Assembly: GCA_002256025.1 (NCBI GenBank)
Contig: NKIB01012322.1
Location: 1 to 64,000 of the forward strand
Reading direction: 5' to 3'
DNA length: 64,000 nt
Origin: Asterionella formosa
Lineage: Eukaryota
Shown here: in pieces, positions 1-19,110 of the stretch
How positions within the stretch are numbered: position 1 is the first letter of the stretch
How the letters are laid out: every line of letters begins with the position of its first letter
Program-made: the position numbers and the translations under genes
The notes under the pieces: model-generated
The model's input: only the letters and a program-made list of their open reading frames with translations
Databases searched by the model: none
Told to the model about the DNA's origin: nothing

Positions 1-127
1 ATCTAGCAGGAAGGCTAGAAGCAGAGACAAGAGAGAAAGTGAGTGGTACTAGGTAGTACTACGATCACGTAAGAGTCTACGTGAAGAGAGACCCAACCCG
101 CGGGAAGGAGTACGGACCATTTCAACA
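1..127. mobile_element. possible 3' end of an LTR fragment
   Basis: Non-coding stretch ending CATTTCAACA (118-127). It shares the ATTTCAACA terminus of the LTR at 54218-54417 but otherwise does not align with it. Confidence 0.3.
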
Positions 128-165
128 CCAGGTTAGACCTAGGAGTAGAGTACCAGGGTACCTGA

Positions 166-6195: not shown

Positions 6196-8094
6196 TTACA
6201 CAGGAGCAGCTGCCGGTGCCGATTCTACTGGACCCGCGACAATAGTGAACATTGCACTCTTGGCAAAGGAAAGATTCGACCCCGTACCTCTCAACAAACG
6301 CATTAAATAGGTCCCAGCGTTCAGCTGAGCGAAGCCTGGCATTTCTGGACCAAATGAAATGGTTCCTCCTGAACTTGCTCCTTGACAGGTTTGAGTTCCG
6401 CAAGTATTAACCCACATGGCAGCAGTGAAGGTGCTACTAACCCCATTCGTCACGTCCTGCATAGCTATCCAGTCATTGCTCAGCGGTGGAATATTCTTGA
6501 AAGTGACGAGAATTTTTTCCCCTTGCATGTATGTGGACTTGTCGACTTGAATGGATGCATCGACAGTAGTAGTCGACGGAGCGATCAGTGTCAGTGACGG
6601 ACTTAGAGTTGATGGAGACAGTGTTGGCGATTCAGTAGAAAATCGAAATGGCGTGATTGTTGGCGGAACAAAAACAGTTGGAGACAACGTTGGCGGAACA
6701 AAAACAGTTGGAGACAACGTTGGTGGAACAAAAACAGTTGGCGGTATAGTTGGTGCCACAGAAGGACTCAAAGTTGCGGGTGGCGTTGTCGGCGAATCGG
6801 TTGGAGATGGGCTCGGTGGGAACGTAGGTGGTGGATTAGTTGGAGCAGGAGCACCCGGAGTCGGTGAATTTGTAGGTTTCAGTGATGGCTGAGAAGTCGG
6901 TTCATGTGTAGGATCTGGTGTTGCGGAGACTGATGTTACAGCAGGCGTCGGCACGTCTGTTGGTAGTGACGATGGTACGAGCGACGGATAGGGACTCGGA
7001 ATGGGTGTCGGGCTTAACGACACTATACTTGTGGGATCCAGAGATTTTGTATACGTCGGATATTGTGATGGCGAGAGAGTAGAACCCACAGTTGGTGTTC
7101 TCGTTGCATACGGAAATCTACTCTGAGAAGGGGAGAATGATACATCACCATTTGGCGCAGGAGCATGTGTATGCTTACTTATTGGCGTTGGCCGTGGCGA
7201 TCTAGCAGTGGGTGCATTTGTCTTTCGAAAGGGAGCAGCAGTTGGTGAGTTGGAAGGTACCGGAGAAAATTGACTGTCAGTGGGGGAAGTCGTATTTCCA
7301 TTGGATACTGGAATCATGGTGGGAGCTGGCGATGCCGAACCCGACTGATTAAGGGAGTTTACCATATTATTACCTCCAGACAATGAACTGTTTGGAGAGG
7401 TATTGTGACTCTTTTGCAGTGAAAGTGCAATGAATGTAGTCGACAAAACAACCCCCAGAAATAGAAGAAAAACAAAGGCGGCAAGCAGTCGACGACTGTA
7501 AGGTAAAGATAGGAAACTTGACATGCTTGTCGTGTCCCCCGACCCAAAGCCGAACCGTCGCGTTTGAGGGTGTTCGTCGCCACCGAGGTAAATGACGGAA
7601 GGCACATCTTTCGCGTTTGTCGGCAATGACTGGTGCAACGAGTTGGGGGCCACCACAAGGATCGCTCCGTTCCTTGGAGGCGCTGGAGGATGGTAGTCCA
7701 GGTGTTCGTTTTCCAACGAGAATCCATTGACGTTTCCTGCACTGCCTTTTGGTGAGCTCGTAGCGCTGGAGTCGAAAGTCGTATCAATGGTTGGCCCCGG
7801 GATCATTTTCGAAATTCTAGTTGCGTCGTCCTTCATACTATCACCTCCAGCAATAGTGTAGTTGTCGAGGGTTTTGCTGTACTCCTTCTCTGTTTCCATC
7901 ATGTAATCAAAATAGCTCTTGTTTGGGTCGTTGCCCCACAGAATTTGGTCCTCAAAGTAGACATCATTTGCGGCTTCGCTGACATTGACTCGTCGCTCAT
8001 TTTCCCTTTGAGCTGTGAAGGTGGTCGACACTGAGTGCTGCGAGTAGCCTTCCCAGTCAGAGACTGATCGATCTTCGTCCTTGGATAATGACAT
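6196..8094 (-). CDS. type II membrane protein with Pro/Ser/Thr-rich stalk and C-terminal Ig/SKICH-like domain
   Basis: First ATG at 8094 (MSLSKDED). One hydrophobic segment LLAAFVFLLFLGVVLSTTFIAL, long PT/PS stalk, then DKSTY..GEKILVTF..NDWIA..MWVNTCG..GTISFG..LNAGTY. Domain name is tentative. Confidence 0.72.
   Translation of the reverse strand: MSLSKDEDRSVSDWEGYSQHSVSTTFTAQRENERRVNVSEAANDVYFEDQILWGNDPNKSYFDYMMETEKEYSKTLDNYTIAGGDSMKDDATRISKMIPGPTIDTTFDSSATSSPKGSAGNVNGFSLENEHLDYHPPAPPRNGAILVVAPNSLHQSLPTNAKDVPSVIYLGGDEHPQTRRFGFGSGDTTSMSSFLSLPYSRRLLAAFVFLLFLGVVLSTTFIALSLQKSHNTSPNSSLSGGNNMVNSLNQSGSASPAPTMIPVSNGNTTSPTDSQFSPVPSNSPTAAPFRKTNAPTARSPRPTPISKHTHAPAPNGDVSFSPSQSRFPYATRTPTVGSTLSPSQYPTYTKSLDPTSIVSLSPTPIPSPYPSLVPSSLPTDVPTPAVTSVSATPDPTHEPTSQPSLKPTNSPTPGAPAPTNPPPTFPPSPSPTDSPTTPPATLSPSVAPTIPPTVFVPPTLSPTVFVPPTLSPTVFVPPTITPFRFSTESPTLSPSTLSPSLTLIAPSTTTVDASIQVDKSTYMQGEKILVTFKNIPPLSNDWIAMQDVTNGVSSTFTAAMWVNTCGTQTCQGASSGGTISFGPEMPGFAQLNAGTYLMRLLRGTGSNLSFAKSAMFTIVAGPVESAPAAAPV
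6659..6741. repeat. coding 30-bp tandem repeat (~2.8 copies)
   Basis: Unit GTTGGCGGAACAAAAACAGTTGGAGACAAC at 6659, 6689 and 6719; encodes PTVFVPPTLS. Confidence 0.9.
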
Positions 8095-11892: not shown

Positions 11893-13430
11893 ATTCACAA
11901 ACTAGCTAACGTCGCGCCATTTGCTTACCTCCTGCCCACTCTTTGAGTGTAAATGTCAATTTTAGCTTGTTGCTATAGCCCATCATATAAAATATATTTC
12001 CTATCTTCACATCGAAATTTGCAATGGGTACAATATTGCCCATCATTAAAATACATTTTGAATATTTCCTATGTTCGCATTTTGGCATTACAACTTGTAG
12101 CAATTGCCCCTTGGTTGTCCAGCCCTGGGATTGCCGAAATTGGCAAGGGGTCTACTTAAGGAAACCATTTTATATACTTTACAGATTTCACTGAATGTGA
12201 TCGTAGAGAGTAGTACTAATTGTCGAATTTCCGATTTGATTGCTTCCGTGGTTTGTTTTGATCGCTTCCATCGTTGTTTGTCATTCCGCACTGTCGTTTT
12301 GTTTCGATTGTATCTATCTACATAAGAACCAATCTATTTATCGATGACTACTCTTTGACGACGTATTGTGGTTATCGACATGTCATTTACCATGATGCCA
12401 ATATTGCCGCCAAGCAATGCTTTTCTTGTACCAATGCGCTTTGCTACATTTCTACTACGAGTTCGTATCACAAGCTACATAAATACTCAGCTAGAGAGAT
12501 TCAATAGTGCTGGAGCAGCGTGGCGATCACGCTTGCTCAGAATGGAATGATCAGGGTTGCTTGTTGCTTTGGTGGGCAGAGAGGAATGACTGTGGCGGAA
12601 ATACTGCTACTGGCTGGTGTCAGGCTACTACAGCGATACGCATGGCTGCAGCAACCAGACCGTTTACGCTACATAACAATGCAGGTCTAAATTGGGTTCA
12701 ACTTTTTTTCTTCTTTGGGTCTTCGATTGTGTGGTGATGGAAAGTCAATTTTGCCTGTGTAAGTACTACAATGATTCACAATGCATACGTCTCCATTGAA
12801 ACTACTATTTTTTACTTCATTTCTAACCCAAAACAATTTTTTCTCTTTCTTATTTGATGCAACTCATTTCATCGCATTTCATACTTTGGTTGCTCCAAAC
12901 ATCATGTTCAATTTTCATTGATGTTGCATGTTATTGCAATCATTCTCGTGTGTTTTACGCTTGTTGTACCATCTCCATACCGTTACTCGGTCTGCCATGC
13001 TAAAATCGGCAATTTTATTGCCGAAAAATTCGATGTGCCCCATATTGCCCCTAAATAAAATTTACCGTACTTTAGAAATTACTTAGAGCCTAAAGCACCC
13101 GAATGGCAAGACAATACCGGTAGCTGGAGCGGGAATTGCTACCGGTACTGGTGGTATAATTATTTTTTTAATCACATGTCGTATACAGAAACAACCTGCG
13201 ATGTCACACTGACACAAGACTCATCTTTCACTTTCGAGCTTTGGTAATGAAAAACGACATGGGATGAGAGAAATGAGTTTTCGCATGTTGACACGGATTT
13301 GAAGAATTTTGAACTTTTTTGTGAGCGAGGCAGTAACTAGAATGCTGAAGGGCTCATTGGTTTGGTCCTGTGATTGGAAATGCTCGGGATTCTTCCTTTT
13401 CTCATTTTTCTTTGCACAAAACTCACAACA

Positions 13431-14477
13431 ATGTCAGGTGAGGACGGCAGCCCAAAAATGATGAAAGCAATTGTTTACGGCAAACCAAATATACAGTTCA
13501 AGCTCAAGCCAATCCCCATTCCCAGTCTCCATGAAACCCTGGTTCGAGTTTTCGCTGCAGGTCTAAACCCAGTCGACGCCAAAGGCGTTGTCGGAGACAA
13601 GTTTCCACACACTTGGACGACACTACGGTACATGTCTGATCGAGCCATTGCCGGTAGGACCATTGGGTTTGAATTTTCGGGCCAAGTAGTGGATTGTCCG
13701 TCCAACAAGTATCAACCCGGTGACGAAGTCTATGGCAGTATGCCGCCCTTAGGTGGGACGTTGTCGGAGTATATATGTGCACCACTGGATCAAATTTTTC
13801 GGAAGCCTGCAAAGCTGACTCATGAACAAGCTGCCTCCTTGGTATTGGTCGGGATGACAGCAATTCAAGCCTTGCGGCCTGAATTCGACAAGGGGTGCTC
13901 GTCAATTTTGATTGTGGGAGCTAGTGGAGGGACTGGACATGTTTCCGTGCAAGTCAGCCGCTGTTTGGGAGCATCGATGATTGTAGGACTGTGCTCGGCC
14001 CGGAACACTGAATTCGTCAAATCGTGTGGAGCTACTCATGTCGTCAACTACAATTCTGACGATTTCTTGGAGAAGCTACACCGGCTGGGCCCGTTTGACG
14101 TGATTTTTGATTGTGTCACTTCGTCAGATCCACAAGATTACCAATTTATGTATCCCAAGAGGCTTTTGCCCATCTGCACACAAAGATACCTTCGCTTGGG
14201 AGGCACTTCGATAGAATGGTGGAAAGCTGGGTGTGAGAGAATCTTTGGAGGGAACTGGTTTGGCAAGGAAAAACTCTTTTGGATTCGATTTCCTAATTCT
14301 AGCCAAGATTTGAAACAGCTAACCGAGTGGTCAGAACAGTTGAGACTAGTGCCAAAAGTGAGTACATTTATAAAGTTTACGCCAGTTGATGTCCAAGATG
14401 CATTTGACCAAATCAATAACCGGCGAGTTAAAGGAAAACTTGTTGTAGTCATTGTCCAGAGTAACAAAATCATATAA
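13431..14477 (+). CDS. MDR-superfamily NAD(P)H quinone oxidoreductase-like protein (RTN4IP1/zeta-crystallin-like)
   Basis: LVRVFAAGLNPVD, IGFEFSGQVV, QPGDEVYG, GTLSEY, ILIVGASGGTG (Rossmann), VKGKLVV. First ATG at 13431. Confidence 0.9.
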   Translation: MSGEDGSPKMMKAIVYGKPNIQFKLKPIPIPSLHETLVRVFAAGLNPVDAKGVVGDKFPHTWTTLRYMSDRAIAGRTIGFEFSGQVVDCPSNKYQPGDEVYGSMPPLGGTLSEYICAPLDQIFRKPAKLTHEQAASLVLVGMTAIQALRPEFDKGCSSILIVGASGGTGHVSVQVSRCLGASMIVGLCSARNTEFVKSCGATHVVNYNSDDFLEKLHRLGPFDVIFDCVTSSDPQDYQFMYPKRLLPICTQRYLRLGGTSIEWWKAGCERIFGGNWFGKEKLFWIRFPNSSQDLKQLTEWSEQLRLVPKVSTFIKFTPVDVQDAFDQINNRRVKGKLVVVIVQSNKII

Positions 14478-14716
14478 AGCGGCATTATTATCATTATGAT
14501 ACAGTTACCTAAGACTGATACAGCAGTCCATCTTGAATATGAGAACTCCGAATTGCTTCATCGTATTGACACCACTTCTGTAGCAATGCCAAACTCCCCT
14601 TGCTAGACAAGGCATTTTTCTTTCCATGTAATCAATACACTAGTGGTGATCTGTAAACCAAACAACGTACCAGCGGAAGAACTGACAGTCGAGTGGGGAA
14701 GGGAACAATTGTATCA

Positions 14717-17236
14717 TCATTTTTTAGGCCTGAATACATCGCCGTTTGTGTACCGTTGGACTGCTGGCATGGTAGAATCAGTCCATCCTAGCACTCGCAG
14801 TGAATAATGACCAATTAAAATAGCTTCATGGGCATCCACTGACAGCTTTGCAGACTCATATTCGGTTCCAACCAAGAATTGTTTTGCAATCAGAGACGCT
14901 GCTTCCTTCGCTTTGTATGCATTCATTTGCTCTCTTTTCAGAAGGAAATCTTGTCGCCAATCGTCAGCAATAACCCTAGCCAGGTTCACATTTCCTGGTA
15001 GTTGTTCAATAGCCTTCTTCCATATATTGAAAAGCTTTCGATCTTCACCTTCGATGACCACATCTGTAACACCACTCTTGATAATCAGGTCATCCAATCC
15101 TTGTTTCAAGGCATCATGGTCATTAAAACGGCAACTGTCTACTCGTATGATTTTGCCGTCTTGGTCAAATAGTGCAGCCCCGGTACGAAGGCCCAAATCA
15201 ACAGCCAACAATCTTCGAGGTTTGCTGGAATCAGCACCATTTGAATGGCCCGCAATCAAAGCATCTAATGAATCAGGCCTCATCAACTTCGCAACACTGC
15301 GGAGCATAGTACCCCCTTCGATTGTCGAAGCAGCCCACTCCGACACGGTGTAATCTTCTCCTTCCCGTTTCTCCACAAAATCAATGAGAATAGGTCCATT
15401 GACAACTCGATTGGCTTTACCAGAGTTAGCATTTGCCGCATTCACCACCCAAGTGCTATCAATTGTAGTTCCGGGACGGGGAGGTCGGGCTGAAAAGGCA
15501 TGCTGGACAGCGCCTCGCCCCTCATGAATATGTCCACAAAGCCATAGAGCAGGCTTTGCTTGAGAAGACTCCACACAAGTACGAAGGGGCACAGATCCCG
15601 CCCGTTGATTGTGGTAAGTGTAGTCCAATATTCCGTACGGAGGTTCATGACTGATGAGAATATCGCAGTTCGGTGGCATCAACACGTCATTTCGGGTTCT
15701 TGAATGGGGTCGGAGGGCAAGAACAATGCCTCCTTCCAATTCCATAGTCATTGGTGCTGTAACAAATAATGCTTGGCTTCGGGGAAACAGGGCACTGCCT
15801 GGCATTCTAGGGTCGTGGTTACCTCGAACAACGATCTTTGTTGGAATGTGCGTTTGAGCTGCCAGGAAGTTATCCAACCCATTCCTGTTGGACCCAGCAT
15901 GACCGTGGAAATCTCCACAATGAATCAAAATATCCGCTGGTGGAAGTTGGTATGGACTCAGCTCGATTTCTCCGTATGAATTGTAATCCACGTATTGGAA
16001 AAGCTGGTTTTCGCAACCGTGGGTATCTGAAATGACAACAAGGCGGAGTGGACGAGAAAGAGGATTACCCCCGGATCTGTGTCGTGAAACCACCAAAACA
16101 GAGGAAGAAAGCTCGTGACCATCCATAGTGTTTCGCGCCATTTTGATGTCAGGATTATTGAATCGCTGTCCACTTTGGTGCGGGTTGTCTGCTAACTTCT
16201 TTACCATTATTGTGAGTTTGTTCAGAACGGACGAGGCTCCGTAATCTGTCGATGTTGTTGCGCCCGCTTCTGCCAATCGTCTCCGCAGCCGTTCCGAAAG
16301 TAACTGTCGTTCGTACGTTGTCTCTGTTCCCCGTCGTATTTGTTGTTTGGACGTTGCCTCTATGCCCTTGACCGCGGCATCTAGTTGTTCCATGTCTCCG
16401 CCTTCTACAACTGCCTTGAGGTTAGGCGTGCCAGTCCGAAGTGATATTTCCAAGACCCCATCGAGGCGTTCTCTGGCCTTGTCTCGTCTAACTATCAACT
16501 TGGTTCGTTGCTTGCGAGAGACGCCTTTGCCGCTGCTCTTGTTTCCACGACGAGGATGAAGCAATCGATCGAGCAGCTGCAGTTCTTGCCTAACTGCAAC
16601 TTCTTTCTGCAGCAAACGAGACGAATCGAGACTTTCGTCGAGATTTGGTGGTCCAAGAAGCTCTTCTACCGATTCAAGGCCCTTGAGTTGATCCATGTAC
16701 TTGACGGGATCAATAAATGAAAGATCAATGGTCGACCTTCCCTTGATAGCCTCCGTGCATCGGTTCATCAGTTCATTATCACTCGTAACAACAATTGTCG
16801 TGTTCCTTGTGCTCCGTACCATGTTAACAATAGTATCGTCCGCTTTCTCCGCGGTTCCTGAAAAGACAACTGCCACTTGTTGGCCTAGTGGGCCTCCAAC
16901 TTGAATAGTGCCATTGGCTCCATGGTCTACCACAAGAACCATCAAGTGCGACGGGTCTTTTGCTGCAATGGCCTTGGCCAAGAGGGATTCGTGAGAGCAC
17001 TTGAAGTTGGACTTGCCTCTAACGTTTTCAGTATCCACGAGAAACAGAATGGCATGTTGCTCGAGACTTTCCTGCACAACTACCGGTATCGGTGGCGCAG
17101 ATTCGACGCTGACAAATCGAGTATGAATCGACAGCGATCTTGCTGTCCAAGGAGCAAAGCAAGTTCCACCTTGCAACAAGTATGCTAATATGAGAAACGG
17201 TCTCGTCCTAGCAGTCACGGATTTAAGGGTTCTCAT
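14717..17236 (-). CDS. three-domain fusion: YacP-like NYN/PIN nuclease + calcineurin-like metallophosphoesterase + RuvC/RNase H-fold domain, putatively plastid-targeted
   Basis: NYN: FLVDTENVRG, VVDHG, EKADDTI, VVTSDNEL. Phosphoesterase: ISDTHG, IHCGDF, RGNHD, SHEPPYG, CGHIHEG. RuvC-like: LLAVDLGLRTG, VVIEG, VDAHEAILIG. First ATG at 17236, then a hydrophobic signal and GTC|FAP. Confidence 0.85.
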   Translation of the reverse strand: MRTLKSVTARTRPFLILAYLLQGGTCFAPWTARSLSIHTRFVSVESAPPIPVVVQESLEQHAILFLVDTENVRGKSNFKCSHESLLAKAIAAKDPSHLMVLVVDHGANGTIQVGGPLGQQVAVVFSGTAEKADDTIVNMVRSTRNTTIVVTSDNELMNRCTEAIKGRSTIDLSFIDPVKYMDQLKGLESVEELLGPPNLDESLDSSRLLQKEVAVRQELQLLDRLLHPRRGNKSSGKGVSRKQRTKLIVRRDKARERLDGVLEISLRTGTPNLKAVVEGGDMEQLDAAVKGIEATSKQQIRRGTETTYERQLLSERLRRRLAEAGATTSTDYGASSVLNKLTIMVKKLADNPHQSGQRFNNPDIKMARNTMDGHELSSSVLVVSRHRSGGNPLSRPLRLVVISDTHGCENQLFQYVDYNSYGEIELSPYQLPPADILIHCGDFHGHAGSNRNGLDNFLAAQTHIPTKIVVRGNHDPRMPGSALFPRSQALFVTAPMTMELEGGIVLALRPHSRTRNDVLMPPNCDILISHEPPYGILDYTYHNQRAGSVPLRTCVESSQAKPALWLCGHIHEGRGAVQHAFSARPPRPGTTIDSTWVVNAANANSGKANRVVNGPILIDFVEKREGEDYTVSEWAASTIEGGTMLRSVAKLMRPDSLDALIAGHSNGADSSKPRRLLAVDLGLRTGAALFDQDGKIIRVDSCRFNDHDALKQGLDDLIIKSGVTDVVIEGEDRKLFNIWKKAIEQLPGNVNLARVIADDWRQDFLLKREQMNAYKAKEAASLIAKQFLVGTEYESAKLSVDAHEAILIGHYSLRVLGWTDSTMPAVQRYTNGDVFRPKK

Positions 17237-17561
17237 TAGGAGATGAGGAAGCCCAAAGTTCGGACGAAAACGGCTCAACAATGCATACGGTAGAAGCGAT
17301 CGGCTCTGATGCAGTGGTGACGATGATTTTTTGATATTACTGTCAACTGTATTGGTTTCTAAATTTTTCTGGTGGTTTTAGTGATGACTGTATACAAGTA
17401 TTGCCTGTAATACAACATTCATCGTATCATGACTCATATAAAAATCAGATTAAATATACTCTACATACCGGTATTCATATGATACAAACCGGCATTCAAA
17501 AGGGTGAATGCAGAGAGGGACCATTCCGACATCGATTATTATTAGATGTATATTAATACTT

Positions 17562-17639
17562 TTGATTGTCACGGAGTTGGCTTCCGGGGTGCGACCCATA
17601 TTGATTGTCACGGAGTTGGCTACCGAGATGCGACCCAAC
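17562..17639 (+). repeat. 39-bp tandem duplication overlapping the start of the pyruvyl transferase gene
   Basis: TTGATTGTCACGGAGTTGGCTTCCGGGGTGCGACCCATA followed by TTGATTGTCACGGAGTTGGCTACCGAGATGCGACCCAAC. Confidence 0.9.
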
Positions 17640-19110
17640 GACAAAGACAGCAAAGAACGAGTGATGTTGTACCCAAGGAAGGAGTGGTATTGTTATTACG
17701 GCGTTGCTGCTGTGGTGGTTCTTGTTTTCGTGCTGGGTTTTCAGAGCATTCCTACAACTTCTACTACTGCTAAACGAACTATAACTGCTACCGCGGGTAC
17801 TCATCAGACGCTGCCAATACCTGATGATGATCCTTTTGCGGAAGAAGCAGATTCTGTCCTCAGCTCAGATCATCAGGAAGGAACACTGGCAAAGGTCCGA
17901 GCTCAATGCATTGACGCAATTAGAGCCAAGCACAACCAGCTATTCTTGCCACTGCTTCAGAATCACGCATCTGTGCTTCTAGTGGACCCAGCATATCATG
18001 AAAACGTCGGTACGTGACATAAACGTCTGCATATATATGATAGTAGATTCACAATGGTATGTACGGTACGGAATATATGTGATACATCCACTTCTTCATA
18101 AACTTTTCCTTCAACCCAACAATCCAGGTGACACCCTGCTCACACTTGGCGAACTTGCATTCCTACGTGATGGTGGGAACTTTACTGTTACCGAATGCAA
18201 GTACGTACAGGCAAAAGCACACGCACCTCCTTGTCATGACGTGTTGCTATCAGGAACTTGCAATGCCACGGTCGCGCTATGGCAAGCGGGAGGAAATTGG
18301 GGAGACTTGTACCTACCCATACAATCCAAACGAATGAAATCATTTGTTGATTTGCTTCACTATGGATTTACAATTGTTGGTATGCCACAGTCGATGTACT
18401 ACAGGAATGCAACTATACGAACACAGCATGCCGACATGTTAAAACGGAACATTATGGAAGGCTTGCAATTGACCGAATTAGAGTCATCCAAGAATCTACA
18501 TTTGGTACGCTCCAAAGTGATTTTAACTTGGAGAGAACAAGAATCATATAAACAAGCAAGAAAACTATACCCTTTTGCTACCAACAAACTTGTTCCTGAC
18601 ATTGCCTTTCAACTTGGACCATTTGAACCAATTCGAACAGAGAACAATATGGTGGATATTCTGCTCTTTTTAAGAAATGATAGAGAATCTAAACTGGGAA
18701 AAAAGGGACGGTCCCGCAACAATATTCAGCAAATCCTCAACCAACTCCCAAATGGATTGGGAGTGACTTTTACAATTGTGGACTGGAATGATCGATTGGA
18801 AATATTTAGAACAACAAATATACTATTTGATGAATCAGCCATCAAACTGGTATCTTTAGGAAAGGTGGTCATTTGCGATCGATTGCATGCAGCTGTCTTG
18901 TCATATTTATCAAGAATACCTATTGTATACATGGATCAAGAGAGTAACAAGTTGACAAATGTGCTAGATGTTGCCTTTTCAAGTGCAGACATTTGTATGG
19001 ATAACCAGAACATGGTGTTTAAGGGATCCTTGCTTCAGGATTCCTTGGAAAAGGCTCTCGACATTCTTGCAGCTGGTGATTTGCAGTTGCAACTTTATCA
19101 TCAAGTATAG
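17628..19110 (+). CDS. polysaccharide pyruvyl transferase family protein (EpsI/Pvg1-like), 2 exons: 17628-18009 and 18128-19110
   Basis: Removing intron 18010-18127 (GTACGT...TCCAG) restores DPAYHENVGDTLLTLGE. Also AGGNWGDLY, GMPQS, TWREQESY, VPDIAFQLG, RNDRES, VICDRLHAAVLS. N-terminal TM segment. Start codon is uncertain. Confidence 0.85.

Follow-up and report, generated by a model that had tools for sequence, protein, structure and literature searches.

The ribonuclease Rae1, a bacterial protein of the YacP family, is reported to cleave mRNA 12 nt upstream of stalled ribosomes, and its family has been reported from cyanobacteria and chloroplasts (PMC12407103). Rae1 feeds trans-translation (PMC13622287), and the D7N D81N mutant is inactive (PMC10351889). 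The fly orthologue of the metallophosphoesterases MPPED1 and MPPED2 hydrolyses phosphodiesters, including cyclic AMP (cAMP) and cyclic GMP (cGMP) (PMC10547211), and the resolvase MOC1 is described as a dimer with a RuvC-like fold and four acidic catalytic residues (PMC7078210). Here we describe a gene of the diatom Asterionella formosa whose product appears to join a relative of each of these three enzymes on one chain. The window analysed is 64,000 nt long (assembly GCA_002256025.1, contig NKIB01012322.1, positions 1 to 64,000), and the gene lies on its reverse strand (Table 1). Its product is predicted to consist of a plastid-import-like N-terminus, a YacP/Rae1-type NYN domain, a long helical linker, an MPPED2-type phosphoesterase and a C-terminal nuclease domain of the RuvC superfamily.

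The open reading frame (ORF) starts at the first in-frame ATG after a stop codon. Comparison of the 839-residue product with a large protein collection gave 132 matches at E ≤ 1e-3, the best 120 of which were listed. Homologues span 92–100% of the ORF length; the closest is 99% identical, and others are 70–74% identical over 98% of the length. The catalytic residues of the NYN, phosphoesterase and RuvC-like domains were invariant in 47/47 full-length relatives, which are 27–74% identical to the window's protein. The ORF is not due to chance, given the 132 matches and this invariance of the motif residues. RNA-library contigs, which by themselves cannot prove transcription, run through the whole gene. 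The minimum transcribed unit is defined by one contig of run X3, which leaves about 76 nt of 5' untranslated region (UTR) and about 187 nt of 3' UTR. Run X1 (polyA) covers 14300..17340 and run X6 covers 14300..17250, the ORF is covered by overlapping pieces in run X7, and no RNA run gives coverage at 17378–17491. In three studies the contigs stop a little beyond the ORF, and no contig covers the intergenic gap, so separate transcripts for the single domains were not seen. A transcriptome sequence of the same family from Odontella aurita is 887 residues long. This is an expressed, intronless nuclear diatom gene, and the single gene with a single transcript assumed in a preliminary description of the locus, made from the letters alone, was borne out. 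The motifs quoted in that description were likewise all found in place, and its domain limits agreed with ours within a few codons.

Table 1. Features of the fusion gene in the 64,000-nt window, in order along the protein after the two whole-gene rows.
Feature	Position	Strand	Details
Whole ORF	14717..17236	-	839 residues plus stop, no intron
Minimum transcribed unit	14530..17312	-	single 2793-nt RNA-library contig (run X3, polyA metatranscriptome), no joints
Signal-peptide-like N-terminus	17159..17236	-	residues 1-26, ends GTC
Transit-peptide-like stretch	17054..17158	-	residues 27-61, begins F-A-P
YacP/Rae1-like NYN domain	16667..17053	-	residues 62-190; D68, D104, D133, D153
Long helical linker	16052..16666	-	residues 191-395
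MPPED2-type metallophosphoesterase	15377..16051	-	residues 396-620, all five motifs
Low-confidence connector	15221..15376	-	residues 621-672
RuvC-superfamily nuclease domain	14720..15220	-	residues 673-839; D680, E729, D801, E804

The N-terminal domain contains the NYN motifs VDTENV (67–72), VVDH (102–105), KADD (131–134) and TSDN (151–154). The Pfam model NYN_YacP (PF05991) scored 21.4 bits on residues 117–156 of the window's protein, below the cut-off of 24.6, and matched 6 of the 47 family members at E ≤ 1e-3; no other PIN or NYN family of Pfam matched any of the 47. Searching the Protein Data Bank (PDB) with the single domain sequence returned chance-level rows only (asparaginase, E 0.027). 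We modelled residues 43–392 from an alignment of 61 relatives (A2), with a mean predicted local distance difference test score (pLDDT) of 83.1. The first-ranked solved match of this model in Foldseek was B. subtilis Rae1/YacP (5mq9, E 5e-3), and VIA aligned the two at Z 10.2, with a root-mean-square deviation (rmsd) of 2.9 Å over 112 residues (model 20..148, that is, protein residues 62–190). VIA placed 4 of 1000 chains at Z ≥ 8, the other three being coiled-coil matches to the linker; the next matches that were not coiled coils were T4 RNase H (Z 7.2) and the T5 flap nuclease, at Z 6.7–7.2. When the 47-member profile was compared by hhalign with two bacterial YacP proteins, both of which pass the Pfam cut-off, the alignment covered 96 columns with 93.2% probability (E 3e-7). 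D68, D104, D133/D134 and D153, invariant in the 47 proteins, aligned with YacP aspartates; their equivalence to D7 and D81 of Rae1 is read indirectly, through an alignment with YacP proteins other than Rae1. The diatom domain thus shares with Rae1 a PIN-like fold and four aspartates at aligned positions. Rae1 is a free protein of 170 residues, whereas the diatom domain is the head of a much longer chain, and the alignment did not extend to Rae1 beyond residue 135. Profile and model comparisons indicate that the N-terminal domain is a divergent NYN domain of the YacP/Rae1 type with its active-site residues intact, in agreement with the preliminary description.

The linker that follows forms long helices in the model, and its fold matches were coiled coils only. 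It contains a short motif at residues 305–318 (E305, T307, R310, E315 and R318, within residues 304–319; window 16280–16327, reverse strand) that is invariant in the 47 relatives and has no known counterpart.

In the middle domain, Pfam Metallophos (PF00149) matched residues 397–572 with 46.5 bits against a cut-off of 21.5, and it matched all 47 family members. The five phosphoesterase motifs are SDTHG (403–407), CGDF (440–443), GNHD (472–475), SHEPP (529–533) and GHIHEG (568–573), and D404, H406, D442, N473, H474, H530, H569 and H571 are invariant in the 47 proteins. A calcineurin-like phosphoesterase, as first proposed, is therefore well founded. The closest solved protein was MPPED2, both with the single sequence (E 3.7e-8) and with the family profile (E 1.4e-26); the runners-up to the profile were aq_1665 (E 1.4e-3) and the 'Nuclease MPE' 6nvo (E 0.012). 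The five motifs including GHIHEG are shared with MPPED2, MPPED1 and Drosophila dMpped (3rl3–3rl5). The MPPED proteins are free-standing animal proteins with small phosphodiester substrates, whereas the diatom domain sits between two predicted nucleases behind a plastid presequence; in addition, two of three deposited MPPED2 sequences have Gly where the window's protein has His. A free-standing relative of 365 residues labelled Pleurochrysis carterae, a haptophyte (P0318), is 40% identical over 98% of the domain. The middle module is thus not confined to diatoms.

The C-terminal domain carries the motifs AVDLG (678–682), IEGED (728–732) and DAHEA (801–805). Neither the RuvC (PF02075), RuvX nor Pox_A22 model of Pfam matched the window's protein even at E ≤ 1, and a single-sequence search of the PDB with this domain gave chance-level rows only (HslV, E 0.33). 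DUF460 (PF04312) was considered and set aside, as it gave sub-threshold partial matches only (E 0.14 for the window's protein, 22.1 bits for longer relatives). An AlphaFold2 model of residues 600–839, built with 61 relatives (A1), had a pLDDT of 86.6, with the core at 673–839 mostly above 90. The connector is modelled less firmly, with block means of 50–72 at protein residues 600–649 (model residues 1–50) and then of 88 and 80 until the fold starts. Foldseek gave 28 solved matches to this model at E ≤ 1e-3, among them the YqgF-like domain of Tex, RuvC, RuvX, Spt6, TEFM, the fowlpox resolvase and maize MOC1. Seeded by these matches, VIA ranked fowlpox resolvase 6p7b highest (Z 14.9, rmsd 2.2, 132 residues), followed by canarypox resolvase 5e6f (Z 14.2), ZmMOC1 (13.8), D. 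radiodurans RuvC (13.5), TEFM (13.0), Ydc2 (12.1), RuvX (11.9) and Tex (11.6). When 48,161 chains were scanned independently, the same families came back in almost the same sequence, with 52 chains at Z ≥ 8 (canarypox resolvase 14.2, phage RuvC 13.2, TEFM 12.7, P. aeruginosa RuvC 12.6, MOC1 12.5).

The order of strands and helices in the model is that of RuvC, with D680 at the end of strand 1, E729 at the end of strand 4, and both D801 and E804 in the final helix. This D-E-D-E tetrad is invariant or nearly so both in 62 eukaryotic sequences and in a set of 65 that includes bacteria, and within the eukaryotic set W760, R761, E769 and K777 are invariant as well. With hhalign the probability was 12% against RuvC, in a low-probability alignment that pairs D680, E729, D801 and E804 with the D, E, D and D of RuvC. 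Against RuvX it was 42%, over the N-terminal 107 columns only, leaving the C-terminal D-x-x-E helix motif unaligned. A prediction of two copies of the domain in complex had a median score of 0.15, against a mark of 0.32, and speaks neither for nor against dimerisation. The domain thus resembles the RuvC, MOC1, poxvirus A22 and phage RuvC resolvases in fold, element order and the positions of the acidic tetrad; it differs from them in that their Pfam models find no match, that its tetrad reads D-E-D-E and that it is a C-terminal module rather than a free protein. It also resembles RuvX/YqgF and the YqgF-like domains of Tex and Spt6 (fold Z 10.3–11.9), and one Atlas cluster of its relatives has been automatically named YqgF family. 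It differs from RuvX in the unaligned helix motif and in that RuvX is separately present in most of the bacterial genomes examined below. The RuvC-like RNase H fold of the preliminary description is upheld by the Z scores of 12.5–14.9 to poxvirus resolvases, MOC1 and RuvC and by the acidic tetrad.

An exhaustive HMMER search with residues 650–839 gave 311 proteins at E ≤ 1e-3, 127 of them at E ≤ 1e-10. Many are free-standing proteins of 143–190 residues with 33–41% identity; the diatom domain belongs to a bacterial family of about 155 residues. The consensus of the bacterial relatives has the same motifs as the diatom domain. Among 24 short relatives (143–195 residues) none matched a Pfam model above cut-off, with RuvC, RuvX and Pox_A22 absent even at E ≤ 0.01, and none of the 6 free-standing relatives scanned against NCBIfam had a model. 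In a collection of species-representative genomes, a locus search built from 12 sequences gave 360 pattern matches, of which 329 were confirmed as relatives; the titles of the best 80 of the 329 name Planctomycetota, Chloroflexota, Desulfobacterota, Gemmatimonadota, Myxococcota, Armatimonadota, Nitrospirota and Rhodothermales. Five genomes that carry the family were inspected for known relatives: canonical RuvC was present in 5/5, RuvX in 4/5 and YacP in 2/5. As canonical RuvC accompanies it in all five and RuvX in four, the family is not the main junction resolvase in bacteria. Profile comparison and modelled fold place the C-terminal family in the RuvC/YqgF-like group as a third branch, one without a name.

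In a quick maximum-likelihood tree built from 116 domains, the 62 fused sequences grouped together among bacterial sequences (SH-aLRT 96); one 157-residue row also fell in this group and was taken as a fragment. The group splits into clade A, with 17 rows including the window's protein (support 99), and clade B, with 44 rows (support 97). Because it has only a midpoint root, the tree does not prove in which direction the transfer went. The position of the fused group and the free-standing bacterial relatives support the earlier suggestion of a bacterial origin, at least for this module.

Among 40 bacterial loci parsed with full flanks, with 36 neighbouring ORFs scanned, no partner gene recurred across lineages, and PADLOC found nothing for the bacterial proteins of the family. 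In one gemmatimonadotal locus (L021, 5189–7591) the family gene is flanked by a MazG gene on one side and a MutY-like gene on the other. In two loci of Caldilineaceae (L030 and L056, about 6589–7822) the same gene for a 388-residue flavin oxidoreductase lies downstream of it, and L029, which comes from the same genome as L030 and is a second copy there, has an ORF of equal size at the corresponding position. In a 343-residue protein on a bacterial-looking contig of 32.6 kb (P0205), the RuvC-like family domain is fused to a histidine phosphatase (His_Phos_1, E 1.7e-20), so that this nuclease family is also found joined to a phosphatase of a second, unrelated fold. Its phosphatase domain weakly matches the model of the bifunctional RNase H/acid phosphatase of actinobacteria (PRK07238), in which an RNase H-fold nuclease is likewise fused to a phosphatase; both the nuclease clade and the phosphatase fold of PRK07238 differ from those of the diatom protein, and we treat this single example as an analogy only. 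In 28 longer relatives scanned for fusions, nothing turned up beyond metallophosphoesterase fragments and a single weak cobW-like N-terminus. A 391-residue protein with metallophosphoesterase and C-terminal domain (P0249) looks N-terminally cut and was not counted as a bacterial fusion.

Residues 1–12 of the diatom protein are basic and are followed by a hydrophobic core at 13–21 (Kyte-Doolittle peak 2.38). The sequence GTC|FAP stands at residues 24–29, after the hydrophobic stretch, and residues 27–44 contain 5 S/T, 2 R and no D or E. The N-termini of the 25 closest relatives were read by eye: 15 show a hydrophobic stretch followed by small-x-small and F (L in one), and the remaining 10 begin inside the protein or show no clear motif. 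A phenylalanine at +1 followed by A-P is the canonical signal for import into the diatom plastid stroma. Judged by hydropathy and by the motif as read, the putative signal peptide followed by F-A-P that was noted earlier is present and shared with close relatives, and the presequence has the pattern expected for stromal import. We consider it very probable that the protein anatomy and the plastid address, taken together, are correct. The members of clade B (P0026–P0037, P0047, P0051, P0056) keep all three domains and mostly lack the F after the hydrophobic N-terminus; these proteins may be directed to another compartment.

We scored the architecture by BLAST coverage in 121 proteins, the query and its best 120 of 132 matches. 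All three parts were present in 61/121, NYN plus phosphoesterase in 32/121, phosphoesterase plus C-terminal domain in 21/121 and the phosphoesterase only in 7/121. Truncated gene models surely account for some of the shorter forms. The form with NYN and phosphoesterase, about 490–560 residues long, recurs, and includes a Fragilaria crotonensis protein encoded on a 126-kb contig. With or without the third domain, NYN and phosphoesterase co-occur in 93 of the 121 relatives, which argues that the two act together. Most matches carry no species name, so the range may be wider, and all named relatives in the full-length and C-terminal-domain searches are diatoms: Odontella aurita, Pseudo-nitzschia pungens, Dactyliosolen fragilissimus, Cylindrotheca fusiformis, Conticribra weissflogii, Mediolabrus comicus, Fragilaria crotonensis, Cyclostephanos tholiformis and a record tagged CCRYP, which we read as Cyclotella cryptica. 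By sequence comparison, the three-domain combination is conserved across diatoms. Databases name the relatives 'predicted phosphodiesterase', 'calcineurin-like phosphoesterase' or 'hypothetical protein' only. The literature searched, which lay largely outside subscription journals, contained no description of this architecture, as the preliminary description had supposed. The domains belong to known superfamilies; as far as we can see, the combination and the unnamed RuvC-like family are new.

The gene stands between a convergent and a divergent neighbour. The convergent one (13380–14477, forward strand) encodes a zinc-type alcohol dehydrogenase/quinone oxidoreductase-like protein of 365 residues, and its stop codon is 240 bp from that of the fusion gene. 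The X1 and X6 contigs continue from the fusion gene into this neighbour, so the two 3' UTRs abut or overlap. Behind position 14636, in the 3' UTR, the X3 and X6 contigs contain 10 extra bases that are absent from the window and from X1; this looks like a strain or allele difference. The 5' UTR has an out-of-frame ATG at 17284–17286 (reverse strand), which precedes the start codon by 50 nt and reaches a stop after two further codons. It lies within the RNA contigs and is a possible mini upstream ORF. On the divergent side (17508–19110, forward strand), the ORF at 17998–19110 encodes a polysaccharide pyruvyl transferase (PF04230). It is overlapped by an ORF at 17508–18017 with a hydrophobic start and no family match, which may be an upstream exon of the transferase gene. 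The RNA contigs resume at about 17534–17580.

The reading we favour, tentatively and at somewhat below even odds, is that the fusion protein takes part in RNA surveillance in the plastid. The Rae1-like NYN domain would cut mRNA at stalled or collided plastid ribosomes, and the truncated messages would be rescued by the plastid transfer-messenger RNA (tmRNA)/SmpB system. The phosphodiesterase and the RuvC-like nuclease, tethered by the long helical linker, would then process or destroy the released nucleic acid, be it RNA fragments, RNA:DNA hybrids or structured RNA, or its nucleotide products. An RNA substrate is suggested by the head domain, which is closest to an mRNA cutter that feeds trans-translation, and by the NYN–phosphoesterase pair, which is the constant core of the protein family. 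It is also suggested by the bacterial distribution of the C-terminal family, which is not the main resolvase there, and by the retention of the rescue system in diatom plastids: tmRNA is encoded in their genomes (PMC4169464), and a plastid SmpB is reported for T. pseudonana (bioRxiv 10.1101/2025.09.02.673837).

The preliminary description had instead proposed that the protein cuts and heals nucleic-acid ends, an idea modelled on Clostridium thermocellum Pnkp, and we found no support for that mechanism. Nucleases of the PIN/NYN and RNase H-fold types work with two metal ions, and their cuts produce 3'-OH and 5'-phosphate ends. Ends of this kind should need no healing by a cyclic phosphodiesterase. 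Pnkp does resemble the diatom protein in joining a binuclear metallophosphoesterase to other nucleic-acid enzymes on one chain (PMC2190708). The diatom protein differs in that it has no kinase or ligase-type module, its partner domains being nucleases, and in that its phosphoesterase is of the MPPED2 type, whereas that of Pnkp is of the lambda-phosphatase type.

Several observations weigh against RNA surveillance. The relation of the NYN domain to Rae1 is distant, with only 19% identity in the structural alignment and a Pfam score under the cut-off, and a search of the large protein collection with this domain alone gave 27 candidates, none at E ≤ 1e-3, with a word filter that limits sensitivity. 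The closest characterised MPPED relatives are described as acting on small cyclic nucleotides and not on polynucleotide ends (PMC10547211), and the bacterial neighbourhoods of the C-terminal family offered no hint of function. In structure the C-terminal domain comes closest to DNA Holliday-junction resolvases, which favours a DNA substrate. A role in plastid DNA recombination or repair, doubtful when taken by itself, is nearly as likely as RNA surveillance. The RuvC-like domain would then play in diatoms the part of the green-lineage chloroplast resolvase MOC1, acting on Holliday junctions or on plastid DNA branched in other ways, the NYN domain would trim flaps like a FEN-type 5' nuclease, and the phosphoesterase would clean ends like Mre11/SbcD or the ligase-associated MPE nuclease. 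The tetrad pairs with the D, E, D and D of RuvC, the N-terminal model matches T4 RNase H and the T5 flap nuclease over model residues 18–320, and the family profile of the phosphoesterase weakly matches 'Nuclease MPE'. Diatom plastid genomes have large inverted repeats (PMC4169464), and we found no paper naming a diatom plastid resolvase in the literature searched. Against the DNA reading, the NYN domain is clearly closer to the RNA enzyme Rae1 (Z 10.2) than to the flap nucleases (Z about 7), and MPPED2 (E 1.4e-26) matches the phosphoesterase far better than DNA nucleases do (E 0.012). The RuvC, RuvX and Pox_A22 models find no match, the hhalign probability to RuvC is low, and the constant presence of canonical RuvC beside the bacterial family points to some other job there.

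It is improbable that the protein is a signal-controlled or defence-type nuclease, in which the MPPED2-like domain would hydrolyse a cyclic nucleotide messenger and so tune or end the activity of both nucleases, as in bacterial nucleotide-signalling immunity. MPPED-type enzymes do hydrolyse cAMP and cGMP (PMC10547211), and the phosphoesterase matched the PADLOC phage-defence candidate PDC-S10 with 97 bits (E 1.9e-28). We rejected this link to defence because the PDC-S10 model also matches 10/14 ordinary control genomes and so behaves as a general phosphoesterase model. The protein has no cyclase or sensor domain, PADLOC was blank for the bacterial relatives of its C-terminal domain, and conservation across diatoms with a plastid presequence looks like housekeeping. 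We think it just as improbable that one or more of the domains are non-catalytic scaffolds, or that the protein acts outside the stroma, in the ER, in the periplastidial space or after secretion. TEFM, Spt6 and Tex, each of them among the fold matches, use RuvC-like folds that are not catalytic. Such inactive RuvC-like domains typically lose their catalytic residues, and in the diatom family every catalytic residue of the three domains is invariant in the 47 proteins, down to 27% identity. As to location, the assignment uses a motif read by eye and a hydropathy window, and the sister clade mostly lacks the F after the hydrophobic N-terminus; against this stands the F-A-P beginning at +1, which is the canonical stromal signal.

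In red-lineage plastids, the handling of stalled ribosomes and the resolution of recombination intermediates are little known, and a 2025 preprint treats as open how diatoms balance trans-translation against MutS2-based rescue (bioRxiv 10.1101/2025.09.02.673837). The gene is a concrete candidate for a role in stalled-ribosome handling or in recombination, and its single exon makes cloning and knockout easy. Its diatom fusion partners are the only functional clue so far to the bacterial family of about 155 residues. We speculate, at rather long odds, that diatoms captured a bacterial member of the RuvC-like family and fused it to a Rae1-type RNase and an MPPED-type phosphodiesterase, creating a plastid enzyme that senses stalled translation and clears the message together with attached hybrid or branched nucleic acid. 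If so, the fusion would reveal the function of a widespread orphan bacterial family, and red-lineage plastids would possess a quality-control route without counterpart in plants.

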